Positions 21,168 through 31,802 are shown, numbered from the stretch's first letter. The stretch: 64,000 nucleotides of DNA from an uncultured Gemmatimonadales bacterium (GCA_963809895.1 CAWELD010000003.1:2432001-2496000); one strand, 5' to 3'. Notes: generated by a model not told the origin, from the letters alone. Numbers and translations: made by a program.

Positions 21168-22064
21168 TCAGCCCTCGCCCCCCGTGGGACGCGGGGGCAG
21201 CGAACGCAGGAAGAGCCACACCGCCTGGAGCTCGTCGTCTTCCATGGAACGCGTGGAGCGCCACGGCATGACGTCCGACAGCTGGGTGCCGTCGGGCCGG
21301 CGTCCTTCCGTGAGTGCACGCTTGAAGTCCTCGAAGGCCCAGTTCCCCAGCCCCTCGTCGGGATTGGGCGTGAGGTTGGCCGAGCGAGGTGCGCCCGGCT
21401 GAATCTCGACGCCCCCGTTGAGCTCCTCGCCGTGGCAACCGGCGCACAACGTGGCGAGGTAGGCCCCGTATTCGCGGGTGGCGCCTCGGGCGGGCGCTTC
21501 GACCGGCGATGCGTGGTGATCGATGCGGTTCGCCTCGACGAGTCCCCCGCTCGTGATGATCATGCGCGCCACCGGACCCAGGGTGCGTGGCCCGAGGTCG
21601 TGGTCGACGGGTGGCAGCGTCTGCAGGTAGGCTACGATGCGGCCCAGGTCACCGTCCCCGAGCCTGGCGTACTCCGACGAGGGCATGATGACGAGCAGTC
21701 GGCCGTCGTGCCCGATCCCGTGTCGTAGCGCCCGGAACCAGTCCTCCGGCGCGTTGGTGGCACCGACGCCGCCCTGCCCAGGCGTCAGGTTGGGTGCCAC
21801 GATGTGTCCCATGGGCGCCGCGTCGATCAGCACCTGGCCGCTCAGGTCCGGCCCATGACATTCGGTGCACCCGAACGCCACCGTCAGACGCTTGCCTTCG
21901 GCGAGGGATTCGGGGTCCGTGGGGATCGGCGGAACCCGCACCTCCACATCGAACGACTTCGACAGTTTGCGTGCGCTCAGCGCGTACACGCCCCCCACCG
22001 CCACCACCAACACGAGCACCAGCACACCCACGCCCACGACCAACCACTTCAGGACTCGCTTCAT
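21168..22064 (-). CDS. Membrane-anchored di-heme cytochrome c
   Basis: N-terminal TM; CTECH and CAGCH; NLTP motifs; MP axial Met. Confidence 0.93.
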   Translation of the reverse strand: MKRVLKWLVVGVGVLVLVLVVAVGGVYALSARKLSKSFDVEVRVPPIPTDPESLAEGKRLTVAFGCTECHGPDLSGQVLIDAAPMGHIVAPNLTPGQGGVGATNAPEDWFRALRHGIGHDGRLLVIMPSSEYARLGDGDLGRIVAYLQTLPPVDHDLGPRTLGPVARMIITSGGLVEANRIDHHASPVEAPARGATREYGAYLATLCAGCHGEELNGGVEIQPGAPRSANLTPNPDEGLGNWAFEDFKRALTEGRRPDGTQLSDVMPWRSTRSMEDDELQAVWLFLRSLPPRPTGGEG

Positions 22065-22068
22065 ACGC

Positions 22069-22416
22069 TCAACCTCCGGGATTGTCGACGTCCTCCTCCC
22101 ACAAGCCCATGAGATAGGTGTCGTAGAGATCGGGATGAGCCCGGTAGTCCTCGACCCACACCTCGAAGGGCGGAAGCACGACTCGCGCCGAGAGCCACTC
22201 CGTGGCCACCTGCATCATGCCCATGTATGAAACGTCGCCCACACCACCCCCTTCACGGGCGGCCTTCTGGGCAACGAGGTAGATTTCGTCCGGCGTGAGA
22301 TACAACAGCAGATCGGCGAGTTGGGCCGAACAGTAGTCCAGGTACTTCGCCCGGAGGATTCCCTCCGTCTCCTCACGACTCGGGTCGCGGGGCTTGGGCG
22401 GATCGGCGCCGTTCAC
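22069..22416 (-). CDS. Hypothetical protein consisting of novel domain A only
   Basis: LRAKYLDYCSAQ...LPPFEVWVEDY; paralogous to ORFs at 23230 and 25230; GTG start at 22416 inferred. Confidence 0.8.
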   Translation of the reverse strand: MNGADPPKPRDPSREETEGILRAKYLDYCSAQLADLLLYLTPDEIYLVAQKAAREGGGVGDVSYMGMMQVATEWLSARVVLPPFEVWVEDYRAHPDLYDTYLMGLWEEDVDNPGG

Positions 22417-22601
22417 GCGGTGCCCCCGGAAGCTCGATGGGTCAGTCCCGCCACAGGAGCCGACTGCGCGCATCCGCAATGCCGCACCCGGCCGAGAACC
22501 AACCTATGGATGTCGCGGGTCGCGCACCTGCGCAAGGGCGGACACGATCCCCGGGGGTTGCCCGGAGCCCTTCGCGGGTAGCGACTTGCGACGTTCGGGC
22601 T

Positions 22602-22805
22602 TCAGGTGGCCAGCGGCGACGCCGTGGCTTCGGAGCCGGTATCGTCACGCCGCTCGCGCAGGTGACGATAGATGGATCGGCGCGTGAGTCCGTACAGCAC
22701 CACCCGGCTCAGGAACTCCGGGTCGCTCTTCTGAACCTCTTCGGCCTCGGCCGCGATGTCTCGGGGCAGACGAACGTTCAGTTGCACGGAACAGGTCTCC
22801 CACAT
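22602..22805 (-). CDS. Small ribbon-helix-helix-like protein (67 aa)
   Basis: SVQLNVRLPRDIAAEAEEV has an RHH-like beta-strand+helix pattern; RBS GGAG upstream of ATG 22805. Confidence 0.65.
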   Translation of the reverse strand: MWETCSVQLNVRLPRDIAAEAEEVQKSDPEFLSRVVLYGLTRRSIYRHLRERRDDTGSEATASPLAT

Positions 22806-22987
22806 GCGCCGACTCCGAAAGGAATTGTTGAAAAGTTGATAACTGGCAGATGTCCCGCGCCGCCGCCGGATCCCGGCCCGGGCGGCACTCGCACAGCCCA
22901 CTCTGCTGGCTGCGGGAACGAAGAATAGGGCGCTTCTTTCCGGGGCGCAAGGCTCGTCCAGGCAACAAGGCTGAGCCGAATAGAATA

Positions 22988-23016
22988 CGTAAGTCCCTGT
23001 CCAGCAAACACTTACG
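22988..23016. promoter_or_regulatory. Perfect spaced palindrome CGTAAGT-N15-ACTTACG
   Basis: Read directly; lies in an AT-enriched 420-bp intergenic region. Confidence 0.65.
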
Positions 23017-23229
23017 ATTATGGCCGTTTCGCCGAATTCAAGCGTTCCCTCGGCTGCGCGAGAGCGCGATTTTTTGAACTTTTTTTGGAGGATGTGCTTT
23101 GATTCCGGGATGTTCCGAGATCAAGGCATCGAGAAATGACCCCGGATCCGTCGCGCGAATTTTGCAAATAATTGGAGCGCGCCGCGTAACCGCGGTCGAG
23201 CGCCGATCGGCGCCGGGCGAGGCGCGGAC

Positions 23230-23838
23230 CTACGGCAGCGCCGAGCGGAGGAAGGCGCGCAGCGTGGCTTCATCGAAGCTGCGGAAACGCTCGCGGACCG
23301 GGGTCAGATGCTCTTCCCGGAAGATGTCGGCGGTGCGCACGGAGTCGCGCTCGGGCGGGCGATGGAACTGGATGGCGCCGCGCCATCCCTCCTCCACCGG
23401 ATGGACGCACAGGGCGGCGACCCATTCCGCCGACGCCACGACGAAGGTCCGCACGTCCACGGTGACGGGCTCACCACCCGGTACCGCGGGCCCTTCGGCC
23501 AGCGGCGGCTCCACATCCACCAGATAGGCGCCCCGATTGAGGTGGAAGTCCTCGAGCCACGCTCCGAAGGGGGGCAGCGGCAGAAGCTCGGCGCAGTGGG
23601 CGGCGAGCTGTTCAAGCGTCGGCTCTCCCCGCACGGCCTCCCCCTGTCCGGCCCGGAACTGGCGCACCAGGGCGCGCACGCCCTCCCTGGGCACAATGGC
23701 GAGCAGGTCCCGTCCCTGGCGTTGGCGATACGCCTCGTAGCGCGCGCGCAGGGCTTCTGTGGCCGGGTGACTCTCCGCGGGTCCCTGTCGGGGGATGTGG
23801 GCGTACCGGGCTCCACCGGCGCCGAGCTCGGTGGCCAT
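23230..23838 (-). CDS. Hypothetical protein, novel domains A-B
   Basis: LRARYEAYRQRQ...LPLPPFGAWLEDF, then WRGAIQF...VRTADIF...LRAFLRSAL; 1-nt TGATG overlap with the upstream ORF. Confidence 0.82.
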   Translation of the reverse strand: MATELGAGGARYAHIPRQGPAESHPATEALRARYEAYRQRQGRDLLAIVPREGVRALVRQFRAGQGEAVRGEPTLEQLAAHCAELLPLPPFGAWLEDFHLNRGAYLVDVEPPLAEGPAVPGGEPVTVDVRTFVVASAEWVAALCVHPVEEGWRGAIQFHRPPERDSVRTADIFREEHLTPVRERFRSFDEATLRAFLRSALP

Positions 23839-24725
23839 CAGTGCACCGTCCCCATCTCGGACACCACGGGAGCCACGCGCACGGTCCTGGCGGCCGGAAG
23901 TCGGTCCCTGAGGCGGGCCAGCGTCTCTCGCTTGCCGAAGGTTGCGACCACACCGTCCACGGCCTGGAAGCGTTCCGGCTCGAAGCGCGCCAGCAGGCCC
24001 GCCAGCCCCGCGCGCACCCGTCCCAACTCCTCACGCAGCTCCTCCATGGTGAGGGGCAGCGGGAACCGGACCTGGTACCCGCCGGCGGCCGCCGGCGACG
24101 CCGGCACCAGCCGACGAAGGTCGGTGCCCGGGAACACCTCGCTCAGGGCATCCTCCAGCGTGTGATCCGGCGCGGCCGTGGGTGTGCGGAGGAGGAGGGC
24201 GTTGTCGTCGTAGTCCAGGTGGGCCCTCACCAGGCGCCCGGGGGCGACCGAGATACGGACTGCCGTGCCGTCGTTCAGGTCGAGATCGCGACACACGTCC
24301 CGGAATCCCAGGCGGAGCAGCGAGGGGCGGGTGAGCGGACCGAAGCCCACGCGCTCCAGGACCGAGAGTGCCAGACGAAAGCAGAAGCGCGACAGGTCGC
24401 CCCGATCCCGGCCGCTGGCGGCGGCGCGCACCAGCTCGGCCACGTGCTCGAGCGTCGGCTCGTACACCCAGTCGAGCACCACGAGCTCGCCACTCAGGTC
24501 CAGGAGCTTCACGTCGGCGCTGCCGAGGTCCACCACTTCGGCCGACGAGGCGTAACGGCCCTCGAGGACCAATGCCACACCGATGTCCTGGATGCGGCCC
24601 CCGGGCACGTCCACTTCGTGCACGTCGCGGTACTGGACCACGGCGCGGGTCAGCGGCAACTCGCAGACGCCGGGCACGTCGGCCATGGCTTCCGGTCGAC
24701 TGTCGAGGTTGAGGCTCGTGTGCAT
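23838..24725 (-). CDS. Hypothetical protein (295 aa)
   Basis: Normal codon bias, protein-like composition, translationally coupled to the downstream gene. Confidence 0.8.
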   Translation of the reverse strand: MHTSLNLDSRPEAMADVPGVCELPLTRAVVQYRDVHEVDVPGGRIQDIGVALVLEGRYASSAEVVDLGSADVKLLDLSGELVVLDWVYEPTLEHVAELVRAAASGRDRGDLSRFCFRLALSVLERVGFGPLTRPSLLRLGFRDVCRDLDLNDGTAVRISVAPGRLVRAHLDYDDNALLLRTPTAAPDHTLEDALSEVFPGTDLRRLVPASPAAAGGYQVRFPLPLTMEELREELGRVRAGLAGLLARFEPERFQAVDGVVATFGKRETLARLRDRLPAARTVRVAPVVSEMGTVH

Positions 24726-24803
24726 GTCGTATTCCCCGTGGATTCGCGCGTGCGCGTCACGGGGAGAGCATGCGTCAGGATCGTCGGAGGGTACACGCCG
24801 ACC

Positions 24804-24833
24804 TTGACACCCGCTCGACGAGCCTTGTATCCT
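24804..24833 (+). promoter_or_regulatory. Sigma70-like promoter
   Basis: TTGACA (24804-09), 18-nt spacer, TATCCT (24828-33). Confidence 0.65.
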
Positions 24834-24838
24834 CTTCG

Positions 24839-24919
24839 ATAGTCAATCGAATGGAAACGGGCTCGCCAGCCCGTGCCGCGCGGGAGTTCCGGTGCCAGCC
24901 GGAGCTCCCGCGTTTTTTT
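24839..24919 (+). ncRNA. Candidate ~80-nt small RNA or attenuated leader
   Basis: Promoter directly upstream; hairpin ACGGGCT-CGCC-AGCCCGT; 14-bp terminator stem + T7; no credible ORF ends here. Confidence 0.55.
24879..24919 (+). terminator. Rho-independent terminator
   Basis: CGCGGGAGTTCCGG-TGCCAG-CCGGAGCTCCCGCG-TTTTTTT; the G-U wobble works only on the + strand. Confidence 0.85.
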
Positions 24920-25229
24920 CAGGGGTGGCGACGCCGAGGCACCACCACGCTTTTCTTGTAATTTTCTCCCGCCCCACGAAGGGGCGACGCAGGCCCGGCA
25001 GACGCGGTGCCACCCGCATCGTCCGGGCCTGATGCGACGGGTCGTCTACCCCGTCTGCGCTACGATAACCAACTGTTTACGACCCCCGCAAGAAGATTCG
25101 CTGCAGCGGGCCCGGAACCGCGCATTCCCACGTCCGCGGCGATGCCAATCGCCAGGGTCGGGATCTCCCGGCGGGGACCCGCCAGCCTCCAGGTTGCCAC
25201 CGCCGCAGAAGCCGATCACCTTGCCGGAT

Positions 25230-25940
25230 ATGGTCACGCCCACCCCCGATCGCTCCGCGCCACCGGTGCCGGAGCACCGCATCCGCCGCCGCTCCGTCGG
25301 CTTCCTGGATCGCGAGGGCCAACGATGGGCCTGCTTCCTGGTGAGCTATCCCGATGGCGACGGCGCCTGGCGGGGGCATTTCGCGTTCCGCCCGTCCGGC
25401 GGGCACGGCGACGGCCATCAGGTGCGTACCACCGACATCTTCGTCGAGCCGTCCGAGGCGGAGATCCAGGTGAAGGCGCGCGGACTGGGGCGCCCCCTGC
25501 TTCGTGCCCTGCTGGACTCGGCCCTGCACGTGCGTTCGCGGGCCGACGACGACTCCCCGTTCCTCCGCCGCTGGTTCCGGGAGCTTCTGGCGGAACACTC
25601 TCGCATGCCCGACGGACCGGCCGAAGGCGGCGTGGGCGAAGCGTCCGATCTCGACGAGTTGAGATCGCTGTACGCGTCGTATCGGCTCGACCAGGTCGCG
25701 CACTTCATCGCCCTGGTGCGTCCCGAGGAGTTCGAAGGCGCGGTCGCGCACGTGCTCGAAGGCGAGCGTATCGACTTCGCCGCCCGCGATCGGCTCCAGC
25801 TCGCCATGCTGGTGGTGGAGTTCATCGAGGAGCGGCTCCCGCTCCCGCCCTTCGAGGTCTGGGTGCGCGACTATCTCGAGCACGCGGAGCGCTACCACAT
25901 CTACGCGCACACGCTGCACCGCGAAGGGCGGCTGCCCTGA
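25230..25940 (+). CDS. Hypothetical protein, novel domains B-A
   Basis: WRGHFAF...VRTTDIF...LRALLDSAL, then LRSLYASYRLDQ...LPLPPFEVWVRDY; start ATG 25230 inferred. Confidence 0.82.
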   Translation: MVTPTPDRSAPPVPEHRIRRRSVGFLDREGQRWACFLVSYPDGDGAWRGHFAFRPSGGHGDGHQVRTTDIFVEPSEAEIQVKARGLGRPLLRALLDSALHVRSRADDDSPFLRRWFRELLAEHSRMPDGPAEGGVGEASDLDELRSLYASYRLDQVAHFIALVRPEEFEGAVAHVLEGERIDFAARDRLQLAMLVVEFIEERLPLPPFEVWVRDYLEHAERYHIYAHTLHREGRLP

Positions 25941-28865: not shown

Positions 28866-29657
28866 TCAGGCGGAGCGCCGCCGGAGGAACAGGCTGTCGA
28901 GGGAATCCCAGGCCTCCAGGGCCTCGGGCGCGCACAGCTCCGATACGAAGCGGATCAGGAGCCGTTCCCATCCCCCGGGCATGCGGAGCTCGGTGGGGGT
29001 GGAGCCGATCGTGGAGCTCAGATACCGACACAGGTTCGCGCTGGTCACCCACCCCAGCCGCTGGGCGGCGCGCAAGGTGGTGAAGCCACGCCCGCGGAGC
29101 ACGTGAGCCACGCTCAGGGCCCGGAACCAGCGCAGGTAGGAAAAGGGGGATTCCAGGGAACGGCGACGGAAGCGGGCCTTCAGGGCTCCCGCCGACAGTC
29201 CCGTGAGGCGTTCCAGTGCGCCCAGATCACCGTATCGATGGGGTAGCGCCATGGCACGGCGCCCCAGCCCGCGCAGCGCCGACGGCAGGGGGCGCCCGGC
29301 GATGCGATCCAGATCCCGCAGCGCCGTGTCGAGCCAGAGGCGCCCACCCTGCTGCCGAAGCCCGGGCTGGAGCCGGGTCGCCAGATAGGCCGGCCAGGAC
29401 CGGGGCAGGCCGTCCGTCTTCCAGCCGTCCCTCCAGATCGCGGACTCACGCTCCGAGATCGTCAGGATGGGCACCGACCGCCCGCTCCCGTCCTGTACCG
29501 CCCTGCGAACTTTCTCCGTGGTCACCGCCACCCGCGGGAACCCGAGGTGCAACGCGAGCTCGACCTCGTCGGCGTCCGCCAGAACGTCCTCTTCGGGCGA
29601 AGCCGCCAGGCGCACAGCGGCTCGCAGGCCGGGATCGGAACGAAGAATGACGATCAT
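28866..29657 (-). CDS. AraC-like helix-turn-helix regulator
   Basis: LERLTGLSAGALKARF...SPFSYLRWFR...AAQRLGW.TSANLCRYL...GSTPTELR resembles the two AraC HTH motifs. Confidence 0.72.
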   Translation of the reverse strand: MIVILRSDPGLRAAVRLAASPEEDVLADADEVELALHLGFPRVAVTTEKVRRAVQDGSGRSVPILTISERESAIWRDGWKTDGLPRSWPAYLATRLQPGLRQQGGRLWLDTALRDLDRIAGRPLPSALRGLGRRAMALPHRYGDLGALERLTGLSAGALKARFRRRSLESPFSYLRWFRALSVAHVLRGRGFTTLRAAQRLGWVTSANLCRYLSSTIGSTPTELRMPGGWERLLIRFVSELCAPEALEAWDSLDSLFLRRRSA

Positions 29658-30018: not shown

Positions 30019-30915
30019 TCAGACCGGAAGGGGAACGGGCTCGTCGCCGGACCAGTCGTAGAACCCCTCGCCGCTCTTCCGCCCGTACCTTCCCAACGCC
30101 ACCATGCGTCGCAGGAGCGGCGGCGGTGCGTAGCGGGGCTCCCGGTACTCGTCGAACATGATCTCCGAGATACGCAGGAGCGTGTCCACGCCCACGAAAT
30201 CACACAGCCGGAAGGGCCCCATGGGGTGTCCGCAGCCCAACACCATGGCCTTGTCGATGTCCTCCAACGTGCCGACGCCCCGCTCGAGTTGGCGGATGGC
30301 GTCGAGCATGTACGGCACCAGGAGGAGGTTCACCAGAAAGCCCGACCGGTCCTGCGCCATCACGGGCTCCTTGCCCAGCGAGCGGGCGAACGCCAGCACC
30401 CCGCCGAGGGTCGCCTCGGAGGTGGCGATGGTTCGCACCACCTCCACCAGCGTCATCACCGGCACCGGGTTGAAGAAGTGGAGCCCGACGAAGCGATCGG
30501 GCCGCGAGGTGCGGGCCGCCATGTCGGTGATGGGGAGGGAACTGGTGTTGGACGCGAACACCGTGTGCTCTCCGCAGACACCGTCCAGCGTGCCGAACAC
30601 CTGGTGCTTGACCTCCGGATCCTCCACCACCGCCTCGATCACCAGGTCGCAGTCCGCGAGCTCCGGCAGCTCGGTGGTGAAGCTCATGCGGCCCAGAGCC
30701 GCATCCCGGTCATCGCGCGTCAGCTTCTCCCGCTCCACGCCTCGCGCGAGCGACGCCTCGACACGGGCACGTCCCGACGCCAACGAGCCATCGTCGACCT
30801 CTCTCACCCGCACCGGATACCCGGCACGGGCGATGACCTCGGCGATCCCGCTCCCCATGAGCCCACACCCCACGACGCCCACCTTGTCGATCTTCATGCT
30901 CGACTCCGTCGTCAC
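30019..30915 (-). CDS. 3-hydroxybutyryl/3-hydroxyacyl-CoA dehydrogenase
   Basis: VVGCGLMGSGIA, IEAVVE, SNTSS, GLHFFNPVP, HPMGP. Confidence 0.95.
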   Translation of the reverse strand: MTTESSMKIDKVGVVGCGLMGSGIAEVIARAGYPVRVREVDDGSLASGRARVEASLARGVEREKLTRDDRDAALGRMSFTTELPELADCDLVIEAVVEDPEVKHQVFGTLDGVCGEHTVFASNTSSLPITDMAARTSRPDRFVGLHFFNPVPVMTLVEVVRTIATSEATLGGVLAFARSLGKEPVMAQDRSGFLVNLLLVPYMLDAIRQLERGVGTLEDIDKAMVLGCGHPMGPFRLCDFVGVDTLLRISEIMFDEYREPRYAPPPLLRRMVALGRYGRKSGEGFYDWSGDEPVPLPV

Positions 30916-31802
30916 CGTGAGCCTCCGGCAGGCCGGGGGCCCTCATCGTCGTCGTCCAGGTTGAGAAGCAGCCGGCGCGCACCGTGGAACTGGCGCTCGG
31001 CCCAGCGGCGCCAGGAGGCAGGGGGAGGCTCCAGAACCTCGCCGGTCTCCAGCCGGTCCAGCACGCCCTCGACCTCGGCGTGCACGTCCAGGAACTTGCG
31101 GCGGTGCCCCCGGCCTGCCAGGCGCACCGCCAGCCAGCCGACCAATCCCGCCACGACCCCTCCCGAGGCGACACCCAGCGCCACGGGAGCGACCATGGAT
31201 ACGAGGAACCCCACCCCCACCCCACCGGCCGCTGCCGCCAGCCCTCCGCCGAAGGCCATGCCCCCCACGTAGTCGCCCCGGATGCCCGGGTCCACGACGA
31301 ACTCCACCATGGTGCGGCCCGGATCCACCGGCTCCAGCGTCACCTCCACCGAGCGGGCGGAGGCCACGAAGTACTTCTTGGAGGTCGCGCTGGCCGCCCG
31401 TGCCAGCTGCGAGATCCAGTCCACCGCCGGCCGGTACTGCAGGAAGGTGGGAGATCGGCGCACCCGCTGCAGGAGTCGCCCCGCCACCATGAAGTCGTCC
31501 AGCTGAGCGGACAGCTCGTCGGTGGTCCCGTCGACGACGCGGGAGGCGTGCACCAGCTCGGGCCCCAGGAGCCGATCGAGAATCTTGCCGTCGGGGGCCG
31601 CGCCGGCGCGCACCTCGGCCAGGGCCTGTCTCACGTAGCGCTCGGGGAGGCCGACCTCACGGGCGATCCGGTAGACCTCCCCCTCACCGAGATCCCCCTC
31701 TCCCTGCTCCGCCTCGCGCGCGGCCAGCTCGGAGGCACGACGGATCACCTCGTCGAACTGTGTGCGGGTCAGGCTACTCCCCGGTTGCCGTTCGTTGGTC
31801 AC
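30912..31802 (-). CDS. Hypothetical membrane protein
   Basis: N-terminal VIRRASEL...IAREVGLP helical unit; two Gly/Ala-rich TM helices; GTGA overlap with the downstream gene. Confidence 0.82.
   Translation of the reverse strand: MTNERQPGSSLTRTQFDEVIRRASELAAREAEQGEGDLGEGEVYRIAREVGLPERYVRQALAEVRAGAAPDGKILDRLLGPELVHASRVVDGTTDELSAQLDDFMVAGRLLQRVRRSPTFLQYRPAVDWISQLARAASATSKKYFVASARSVEVTLEPVDPGRTMVEFVVDPGIRGDYVGGMAFGGGLAAAAGGVGVGFLVSMVAPVALGVASGGVVAGLVGWLAVRLAGRGHRRKFLDVHAEVEGVLDRLETGEVLEPPPASWRRWAERQFHGARRLLLNLDDDDEGPRPAGGSR

Follow-up and report, generated by a model that had tools for sequence, protein, structure and literature searches.

Ribbon-helix-helix (RHH) regulators of the Arc/MetJ/CopG type and the type II antitoxins FitA and ParD are the described systems closest to the locus reported here, which was found in the genome of an uncultured Gemmatimonadales bacterium and whose mode of action is probably nearest to that of an RHH regulator with a protein partner. 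The DNA analyzed (the window) is a stretch of 64,000 nucleotides, C3:2,432,001–2,496,000 in the contig coordinates of a 5.3-Mb genome, and positions are counted from its first nucleotide. The locus comprises four genes on the minus strand, here named P1, P5, P2, and P4, and one on the plus strand, P3. We describe its gene set, two new protein domains (A and B), its inheritance, its cis motifs, and the structure of a candidate small RNA, and propose how these parts may work together.

P5 resembles an RHH regulator with a cognate partner in its sequence pattern and length and in its position upstream of a small gene, P1, whose product it may bind according to a structure model. Unlike these regulators, it has no significant family or PDB match, and its partner is a new domain that also occurs in paralogous fusions, putatively adaptors. 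The locus further differs from RHH and antitoxin systems in its vertical single-copy inheritance and its remote upstream sites. A described counterpart of these sites is the Cheo-type LexA box (GAAC-N4-GTTC), of which the conserved operator-like motif of the locus matches the left half and the spacing, whereas its right half is degenerate. A search of the full-text literature, with supplementary gene tables and subscription journals outside its scope, returned nothing on these genes, the motif, or the RNA.

Gene content and inheritance

An initial annotation of the window had quoted three reading frames that share a helical domain. All three (P1, P2, and P3) are present with the quoted segments where it placed them, and the 295-aa unknown and the RHH-like protein that it also named (P4 and the 67-aa P5) are both genuine and conserved (Table 1). 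In a comparison with one relative, codon position 3 carried an excess of differences in all five genes. The G + C content of the region (0.67–0.70) resembles that of the rest of the genome.

A scan of 185,579 genomes yielded 352 confirmed matches; among the 80 P1 loci listed, 77 were titled Gemmatimonadota, two “uncultured bacterium”, and one was a 4-kb contig in a Gammaproteobacteria bin. The named homologues belonged to Gemmatimonadota, mainly Longimicrobiales. P3 was matched in 31 of 41 relatives, and all five genes occurred in the same order in 16 of the 20 regions first compared (two of these cut or frameshifted). The cluster proteins of relatives were single copy and 60–77% identical, with constant synteny across a family.

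Within a set of 301 phylum genomes, whose families are labeled f1–f7 (G and L numbers denote genomes and loci of this set and of relatives), domain A was found in 106, P5 in 75, and P4 in 35. P5 and the P1-type A occupied the same families (45/47 genomes in f1, 22/23 in f7, 1/1 in f6, and 1/4 in f2; in f3, five and six of six genomes, respectively). The two genes were adjacent in 70 of 74 genomes and unlinked in four, and P5 stood beside P1 in each of 80 loci chosen by P1; in the window they are 186 nt apart. In f7, where 22 of 23 genomes had one A match only, the order was P5, P1, and then B as a separate gene in six of seven loci, the seventh having one intervening gene. Given this adjacency and the shared families, P5–P1 is the core of the locus, and P2, P3, and P4 are additions.

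The flanks were stable in f1, with ssb or infA convergent on one side and glpD, rpsU, and a 3-hydroxybutyryl-CoA dehydrogenase gene on the other, and no integrase or transposase was seen among 78 neighbor proteins scanned in this family. The patchy, mobile, and often multi-copy distribution of toxin–antitoxin genes was not found; the locus was single copy, occurred in nearly all f1 and f7 genomes (45/47 and 22/23), and kept its synteny. It is vertically inherited in Longimicrobiales and nearby Gemmatimonadota. The annotation had spoken of a lineage-specific regulatory module that is not mobile, and the restriction to one phylum, the single copy, the stable synteny, the genome-like G + C content, and the conserved cis sites all agree with this.

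Two new domains

Domain A is common to P1, P2, and P3. Local alignment scores were 72 for P1–P2 (z 10.4), 109 for P1–P3 (z 17.3), and 79 for P2–P3 (z 10.8), none of which was reached in 1000 shuffles, and profile–profile comparison of the three A subfamilies, on which the annotation had let its claim depend, gave probabilities of 98.5–99.2%. The genome carries exactly three copies of A, all at this locus. A second shared domain, B, which the annotation had overlooked, relates the C-terminal part of P2 to the N-terminal part of P3 (score 78, z 11.0, 0/1000 shuffles). The architectures A (P1), A–B (P2), and B–A (P3) have a permuted order: the two domains are fused in both orders, and are also found as neighboring genes.

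The annotation had recognized no family for domain A, and none of the five proteins matched Pfam, NCBIfam, PADLOC, or PHROG (best E values 0.097–0.26). PDB sequence profile searches with A, P4, P5, B, and the distant A subfamily described below (A-prime) gave no E value below 0.02. The ESM Atlas, which includes the exact sequence of neither protein, returned no usable match to P1 or P4. A profile of A retrieved 326 proteins at E ≤ 0.001 among 1.84 billion representatives, and nearly all of the 150 matches listed fit the three architectures by length. In a structure model of P3 (predicted local distance difference test, pLDDT, 79.5; predicted template modeling score, pTM, 0.54), B and A form separate units on a low-confidence linker, with B modeled as a three-stranded sheet and two helices. 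Fold searches with this model returned no Foldseek E value below 0.1 and a best Z of 5.6, and mainly domain B was covered, domain A barely.

The A matches in f4 (27/125) and f5 (3/71) constitute A-prime (profile probability 92–96%), which in these two families is N-terminal to a TehB-like methyltransferase fold and in f2 and f3 stands alone. As in TehB S-adenosylmethionine methyltransferases, the C-terminal part of the fusion matches 2i6g (E 2e-10) and TehB 2xva (E 1.4e-9); unlike in TehB, the glycine-rich motif I is degenerate, the N-terminal domain is A-prime, and the genes lie elsewhere, without P5. In loci L094–L108, these fusion genes usually stood near a gene for an RlmI-like PUA methyltransferase, a cation-efflux gene, and a dehydrogenase/aminotransferase pair. 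A single protein (P0334) fuses a P1-type A to an EAL domain; it is one sequence on one contig, and may be genuine or an accident of assembly or gene calling. With its methyltransferase, EAL, and B fusions, domain A behaves as a portable accessory module. In a quick tree, P1, P2, P3, and A-prime formed four groups (Shimodaira–Hasegawa-like approximate likelihood ratio test 95, 98, 93, and 100) that meet on long branches. In the P1 genes of f3 (L042, L043, L044, and L113), a long insertion of low complexity separates helix 2 from helix 3.

The third B copy of the genome is a stand-alone gene (C3:3,194,749–3,195,057; L134:5750–6058) with orthologues in several relatives, and lies between an mscS-like gene and ABC transporter genes, as judged by their motifs. 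Eleven proteins combine a B-like domain with an unnamed helical tail; P0445–P0455 and L053 represent a family of about 188 aa with this arrangement, the tail being C-terminal, and have no Pfam match. The tail is reminiscent of Rho-N/HeH modules.

Mimicry of DnaA domain I by domain A was considered and rejected. Judged by likeness beyond the short LPxPxFExW motif, the PDB match had an E value of 1.3, and the N-terminus of the genome’s own DnaA scored −1.3 bits, no better than shuffles.

The P5–P1 pair

The RHH-like protein of the initial annotation is a real and conserved gene product, and its RHH label comes from the sequence pattern only: a strand-helix-helix pattern is visible in the P5 alignment, in which the best Pfam match was Arc (E 0.11, in one of 23 members). 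No homology was found between P5 and P1. A model of a complex with two copies each of P5 and P1 scored 0.38, against 0.01 for the best of three controls; at least 88% of contacts were shared between runs, and the pLDDT of the partner was at least 67. Of the solved complexes, 116 of 157 attained the calibration mark, as did 2 of 215 mismatches. Since the range up to 0.60 held only 18 of the 157 solved complexes and both mismatches, the model weakly suggests a P5–P1 complex, helped only by the prior that the gene linkage provides.

The annotation had also cast the A-only protein as a possible titrating antagonist, an idea that the distribution of P1 does not support. P1 is the most widespread member and often occurs without any other A gene, as in the 22 f7 genomes with a single A match, so antagonism of P2 and P3 cannot be its basic role. 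Its constant companion is P5 (70/74 genomes and 80/80 loci), and the A–B and B–A genes and P4 (35/301) are accessory.

Upstream sites

Upstream of P5, the layout is fixed: the operator-like motif is followed about 35 nt on by an inverted pair of half sites that resemble the integration host factor (IHF) consensus, and then by a sigma70-like promoter. The motif, at more than 13 bits and 232–261 nt upstream of the P5 start, was present in 78 of 79 loci (5.5% of shuffles), some of which repeat training genomes; the 127 regions amount to 115 unique ones. Of the 27 training loci, 17 had it upstream of P5, as did all 11 held-out f1 loci, one of them at 181 nt. A second copy, at the P4 promoter, was found in 18 of 21 loci and then in five of ten held-out loci. 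The IHF-like pair occurred in 42/79 loci as against 6/237 shuffles.

At the place of the DnaA-box-like 9-mer before P5 (TTTTCAACA in the window), 16 of 115 unique loci had the perfect TTTTCCACA, the same perfect 9-mer as in the genome’s own dnaA promoter. Perfect DnaA boxes occurred in 22/115 loci, with these 16 at one place; a count over 113 loci gave 19, as against about 2% by shuffle. The idea that the locus is an origin or terminus of replication was discarded: the skew minimum lies at 3,546 kb of contig C3, next to dnaA, and the maximum at 959 kb, whereas the locus lies at 2,455 kb.

The annotation had mentioned an operator-like palindrome but not its place. The conserved candidate is the inverted repeat with 7-bp arms that forms the IHF-like pair (22988–23016). 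A GC-rich 14-bp palindrome at 23200–23213 also exists, and by eye it was not seen among the relatives listed.

LexA2 and LexA1

Genome-wide, the third-best motif site falls within the promoter of lexA2 (L138:1492–2133; G000:C3:644646–645287), a second gene of the lexA type located downstream of gltX. Like Cheo-type LexA, LexA2 contains a LexA DNA-binding domain and an S24 domain. Unlike in a LexA repressor, the Ala-Gly site and the Ser/Lys pair are, by eye, missing from f1 LexA2, and both look intact in an f2 member. Of 41 relatives, 37 carry LexA2; none was found in seven of seven f7 genomes or in the f1 genomes G167, G275, G151, G024, and G194, all at least 91% complete. The motif was absent from its usual place in all ten P5-bearing, LexA2-less genomes checked (the seven of f7, G167, G275, and G151), and in G024 and G194, LexA2, P5, and A were all missing together. 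By eye, P5 promoters of LexA2-less genomes (L114–L120 and L344) often had AATCCACA in place of the motif. In L171:2990–3980 (G000:C5:26,990–27,979), two back-to-back copies of the motif precede a gene for a 250-aa protein without a Pfam match.

The canonical LexA1 differs in having its own direct repeat, TTCG[GC]-N6-TTCG[GC], which was present in 15 of 15 LexA1 promoters (L137 and L326–L342) and is likely the SOS box of this group. The 64-kb window contains no exact match to this repeat (0.62 expected by chance; mismatched sites were not searched). Since the repeat differs from the motif and is absent from the window, the locus probably stands outside the classical SOS response. The same repeat was seen by eye before recA (G000:C3 near 372,250).

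The small RNA and P4

A candidate small RNA named in the annotation has a folding energy of −48.3 kcal/mol (z −6.0), a promoter, a terminator, and covariation, and is single copy in the genome. In an alignment of 18 rows, whose 17 homologues were chosen by similarity from the loci examined, 9 of 19 pairs change on both sides, with 29 cells against 8.0 ± 3.2 in shuffles (0/500). This covariation is confined to the hairpin of the terminator; conservation of the first hairpin makes it uninformative. The RNA shares two hairpins and a U-tract with the Rfam families BjrC68 (E 0.0056) and sX12 (E 0.62), and differs from them in its GCCA loops and in scores below gathering (24.8 bits against 39 and 24.6 against 106, respectively); no Rfam family reached its threshold.

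The RNA is absent from many f1 loci and, where present, lies antisense within the inferred P4 leader. Of five held-out f3 matches (E 1e-8 or better), all of which neighbor cluster genes and have the same promoter, four adjoin P4. Matches of the RNA model below about 30 bits in f2 and f3 look like generic terminators without cluster genes, and one 37-bit match (L287) likewise has no cluster genes beside it. Two f3 genomes have a second, weaker copy (L284:1110–1200 and L113:8559–8645) at a distance of about 300 nt. Contigs of one metatranscriptome (0.11 of words), which gives neither strand nor level, cover parts of P1, P2, and P4 and the segment 24676–24920; that one of them ends at 24920, at the U-tract, is a weak hint.

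The P4 model (pLDDT 86.4, pTM 0.82) gave no E value below 0.001 in PDB or viral libraries, and P4 had no PDB sequence match. Its N-terminus is SH3-like over about 80 residues, as in MazF/PemK/Kid toxins and KOW/SH3 barrels (Z 6–7). The best matches of the barrel were a toxin–antitoxin chain, 7bye_B (Z 7.1, root-mean-square deviation 2.9, 79 aligned), Kid (Z 6.6), and MazF (Z 6.6), and KOW/SH3 RNA-binding domains were equally near (Ski2, Z 6.7; OapB, Z 6.3). Generic alpha/beta domains matched the C-terminal domain with Z up to 6.8, and all of these values fall within the background stated for the tool (Z 7–8). Unlike MazF/PemK/Kid and KOW/SH3 proteins, P4 additionally contains an alpha/beta domain and a helical linker. 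A hairpin at 24733–24765, just 5′ of the P4 start, would cover the ribosome site, and terminator-like hairpins occur at the same place in L029 and L034, both of which carry the RNA.

Features and neighboring genes

The features of the locus are listed in Table 1. A cytochrome c-type gene (21168–22064) lies between ssb and P1 in the window; in most f1 relatives, ssb or infA directly follows P1. Near rpsU, 28869–29615 encodes an AraC-type helix-turn-helix protein (Pfam HTH_18, E 1.5e-7), and 30912–31802 encodes a 296-aa protein without a Pfam match. No tRNA or tmRNA gene was found in the window.

Table 1 Features of the locus, by position in the window.
Feature	Position	Strand	Description
P1	22069–22416	−	115 aa, starting with GTG; consists of domain A alone; core gene
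P5	22602–22805	−	67 aa, RHH-like by sequence pattern; core gene upstream of P1
DnaA-box-like 9-mer	22826–22834	−	TTTTCAACA, with a single mismatch; immediately before the P5 ribosome site
Sigma70-like promoter of P5–P1	22922–22950	−	−35 TTGCGC, 17 nt, −10 TATTCT; by eye, conserved in relatives
Inverted pair of IHF-like half sites	22988–23016		CGTAAGT-N15-ACTTACG; occurs once in the genome
Operator-like motif, upstream copy	23035–23047	−	Consensus G[GA]AAC[AG]NNTG[AG][AT]T
T-tract/A-tract element	23158–23172		Just after the P2 stop; T4-N1..4-A3 match in 87/115 loci, counted without shuffle control
P2	23230–23838	−	202 aa; domains A and B, in this order, joined by a proline-rich linker; overlaps the P4 stop at its start
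P4	23838–24725	−	295 aa; N-terminal SH3-like barrel and C-terminal alpha/beta domain (model)
Sigma70 promoter of the small RNA	24804–24833	+	TTGACA-18-TATCCT
Candidate small RNA	24840–24920	+	Two GCCA-loop hairpins and a terminator with a U-tract; runs antisense to the inferred P4 leader
Sigma70-like promoter of P4–P2	25062–25091	−	Operator-like motif at 25066–25078, over the −10 element
P3	25230–25940	+	Domain B, linker helix, domain A; 236 aa

Discussion

We read the locus, with a probability of roughly 45%, as a lineage-specific transcription-control module in which an RHH regulator works with an A-domain partner and A/B adaptors under the control of LexA2. P5 would be an RHH DNA-binding dimer, and P1, the bare domain A, would bind it as a co-regulator; P2 (A–B) and P3 (B–A) would be adaptors of later origin, linking A, as the P5-binding module, with module B. 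LexA2, which in this family appears to be uncleavable, would bind the shared motif, repressing P4–P2 by covering the −10 element and acting on P5–P1 from about 130 nt upstream through an IHF bend. Because these two modes differ, the two halves of the locus may be set oppositely. In some lineages, a further layer would come from the small RNA and from P4, which might bind RNA through its barrel.

Several observations weigh against this interpretation. The RHH label of P5 lacks a significant family or PDB match, and the PDB profile search returned no RHH chain; A and B are not confidently packed together in the P3 model (pTM 0.54). No other gene family recurs behind the motif at the sites examined (30 of 60 from five genomes, and 12 of the own genome). 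G268 and G086 have LexA2 without a motif site, as do L042, L044, and L033 by the strict pattern. The motif core was found in 15 of 30 lexA2 promoters (12% by shuffle), but the held-out set had it in only 2 of 13 (11%), and the lexA1 promoters serving as a control had it in 5 of 15. The full weight matrix exceeded 10 bits in only 5 of the 30 lexA2 promoters. Since the genomes are kin, the losses of LexA2 and the motif may represent only three or four events.

It is unlikely, though less so than the other alternatives, that domain A is instead, as the annotation had proposed, a dimerization module, with P1, P2, and P3 forming homo- and heterodimers that mix domain-B valencies and with P1 as a decoy in one form. 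The three long-separated paralogues are kept side by side (by the quick tree), domain A is all-helical in its model, and A-prime sits N-terminal to a TehB-like methyltransferase, a common place of dimerization domains. P1, however, often has no other A gene (22/23 f7 genomes with a single A), so serving as a decoy for P2 and P3 is not its basic job, and its tightest link is with P5. Next in rank, and doubtful, is a chromosome-organizing or cell-cycle module in which P5 is a nucleoid-associated RHH protein, as CdbA and MatP are, and the intergenic DNA, carrying the IHF-like, DnaA-like, and A-tract sites, is itself a functional chromosomal site. The single occurrence of the IHF-like pair in the genome and its presence in 42/79 loci are consistent with this, as are the perfect DnaA boxes (22/115 loci, 16 at one place; 19/113 against about 2% by shuffle), ssb as the usual downstream neighbor in f1, genes 3–6 kb away whose motifs point to gyrB, recF, and a dciA-like gene, and the hint at c-di-GMP from one A–EAL fusion. 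Yet roughly 1.1 Mb separate the locus from dnaA and the skew minimum and 1.5 Mb from the skew maximum, 226 of the 301 phylum genomes yielded no P5 match, ssb is convergent rather than co-transcribed, the A–EAL fusion is one sequence on one contig, and the likeness of A to DnaA domain I failed.

We hold it improbable that domain A is a small sensor of a ligand, metal, or redox state that signals to an attached or bound P5, domain B, methyltransferase, or EAL domain, a reading that can coexist with the RHH–LexA2 module. It would suit the position of A N-terminal to a TehB-like methyltransferase in f4 and f5 and once to an EAL domain, and the near-invariant Cys that P1 keeps in its KYxD[YW]CSA[QR] motif; this Cys is, however, missing from P2, P3, and A-prime. 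The least probable alternative is a domesticated toxin–antitoxin or anti-phage locus, with P5 as an RHH antitoxin and P1 as the toxin and/or P4 as a MazF/PemK-like RNase held in check by P2 or the small RNA. An RHH-like gene upstream of a small gene, the weak P5–P1 model, the toxin–antitoxin chain (7bye_B, Z 7.1), Kid, and MazF among the best matches of the P4 barrel, and the stop/start overlap of P4 and P2 would fit. The Z-scores of the barrel tie with those of KOW/SH3 domains within the background of 7–8, however, and PADLOC and PHROG gave no match. The locus is also single copy with the same synteny and 60–77% identity across a family, P5 and P1 are 186 nt apart here and unlinked in 4/74 genomes, and P4 is found in 35/301 genomes compared with 75/301 for P5.

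Speculatively, the RHH–LexA2 module might be extended to a new kind of cell-state switch specific to Gemmatimonadota, which in this full form we consider a long shot. A damage-insensitive LexA paralogue, IHF, and DnaA would set the level of an RHH–domain A complex, which the permuted A/B adaptors, the antisense RNA, and the barrel protein would retune, coupling replication to gene control or to the state of the nucleoid. In that case, domain A would represent a new signaling or interaction fold that also serves methyltransferases and a c-di-GMP phosphodiesterase.

The Gemmatimonadota are an abundant group of which little is understood. From this locus come two domain families that no catalogue lists, a candidate for a new family of small RNAs, and a candidate operator for a repurposed, uncleavable LexA, with the likely SOS box of the group as a by-product. 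The cultured Gaopeijia maritima has a recorded homologue of P4, so an experimental host may be available. Should P5–A binding and LexA2 control prove true, the locus would be a new regulatory circuit of mostly unknown parts; otherwise, it would still be a well-defined orphan gene family.

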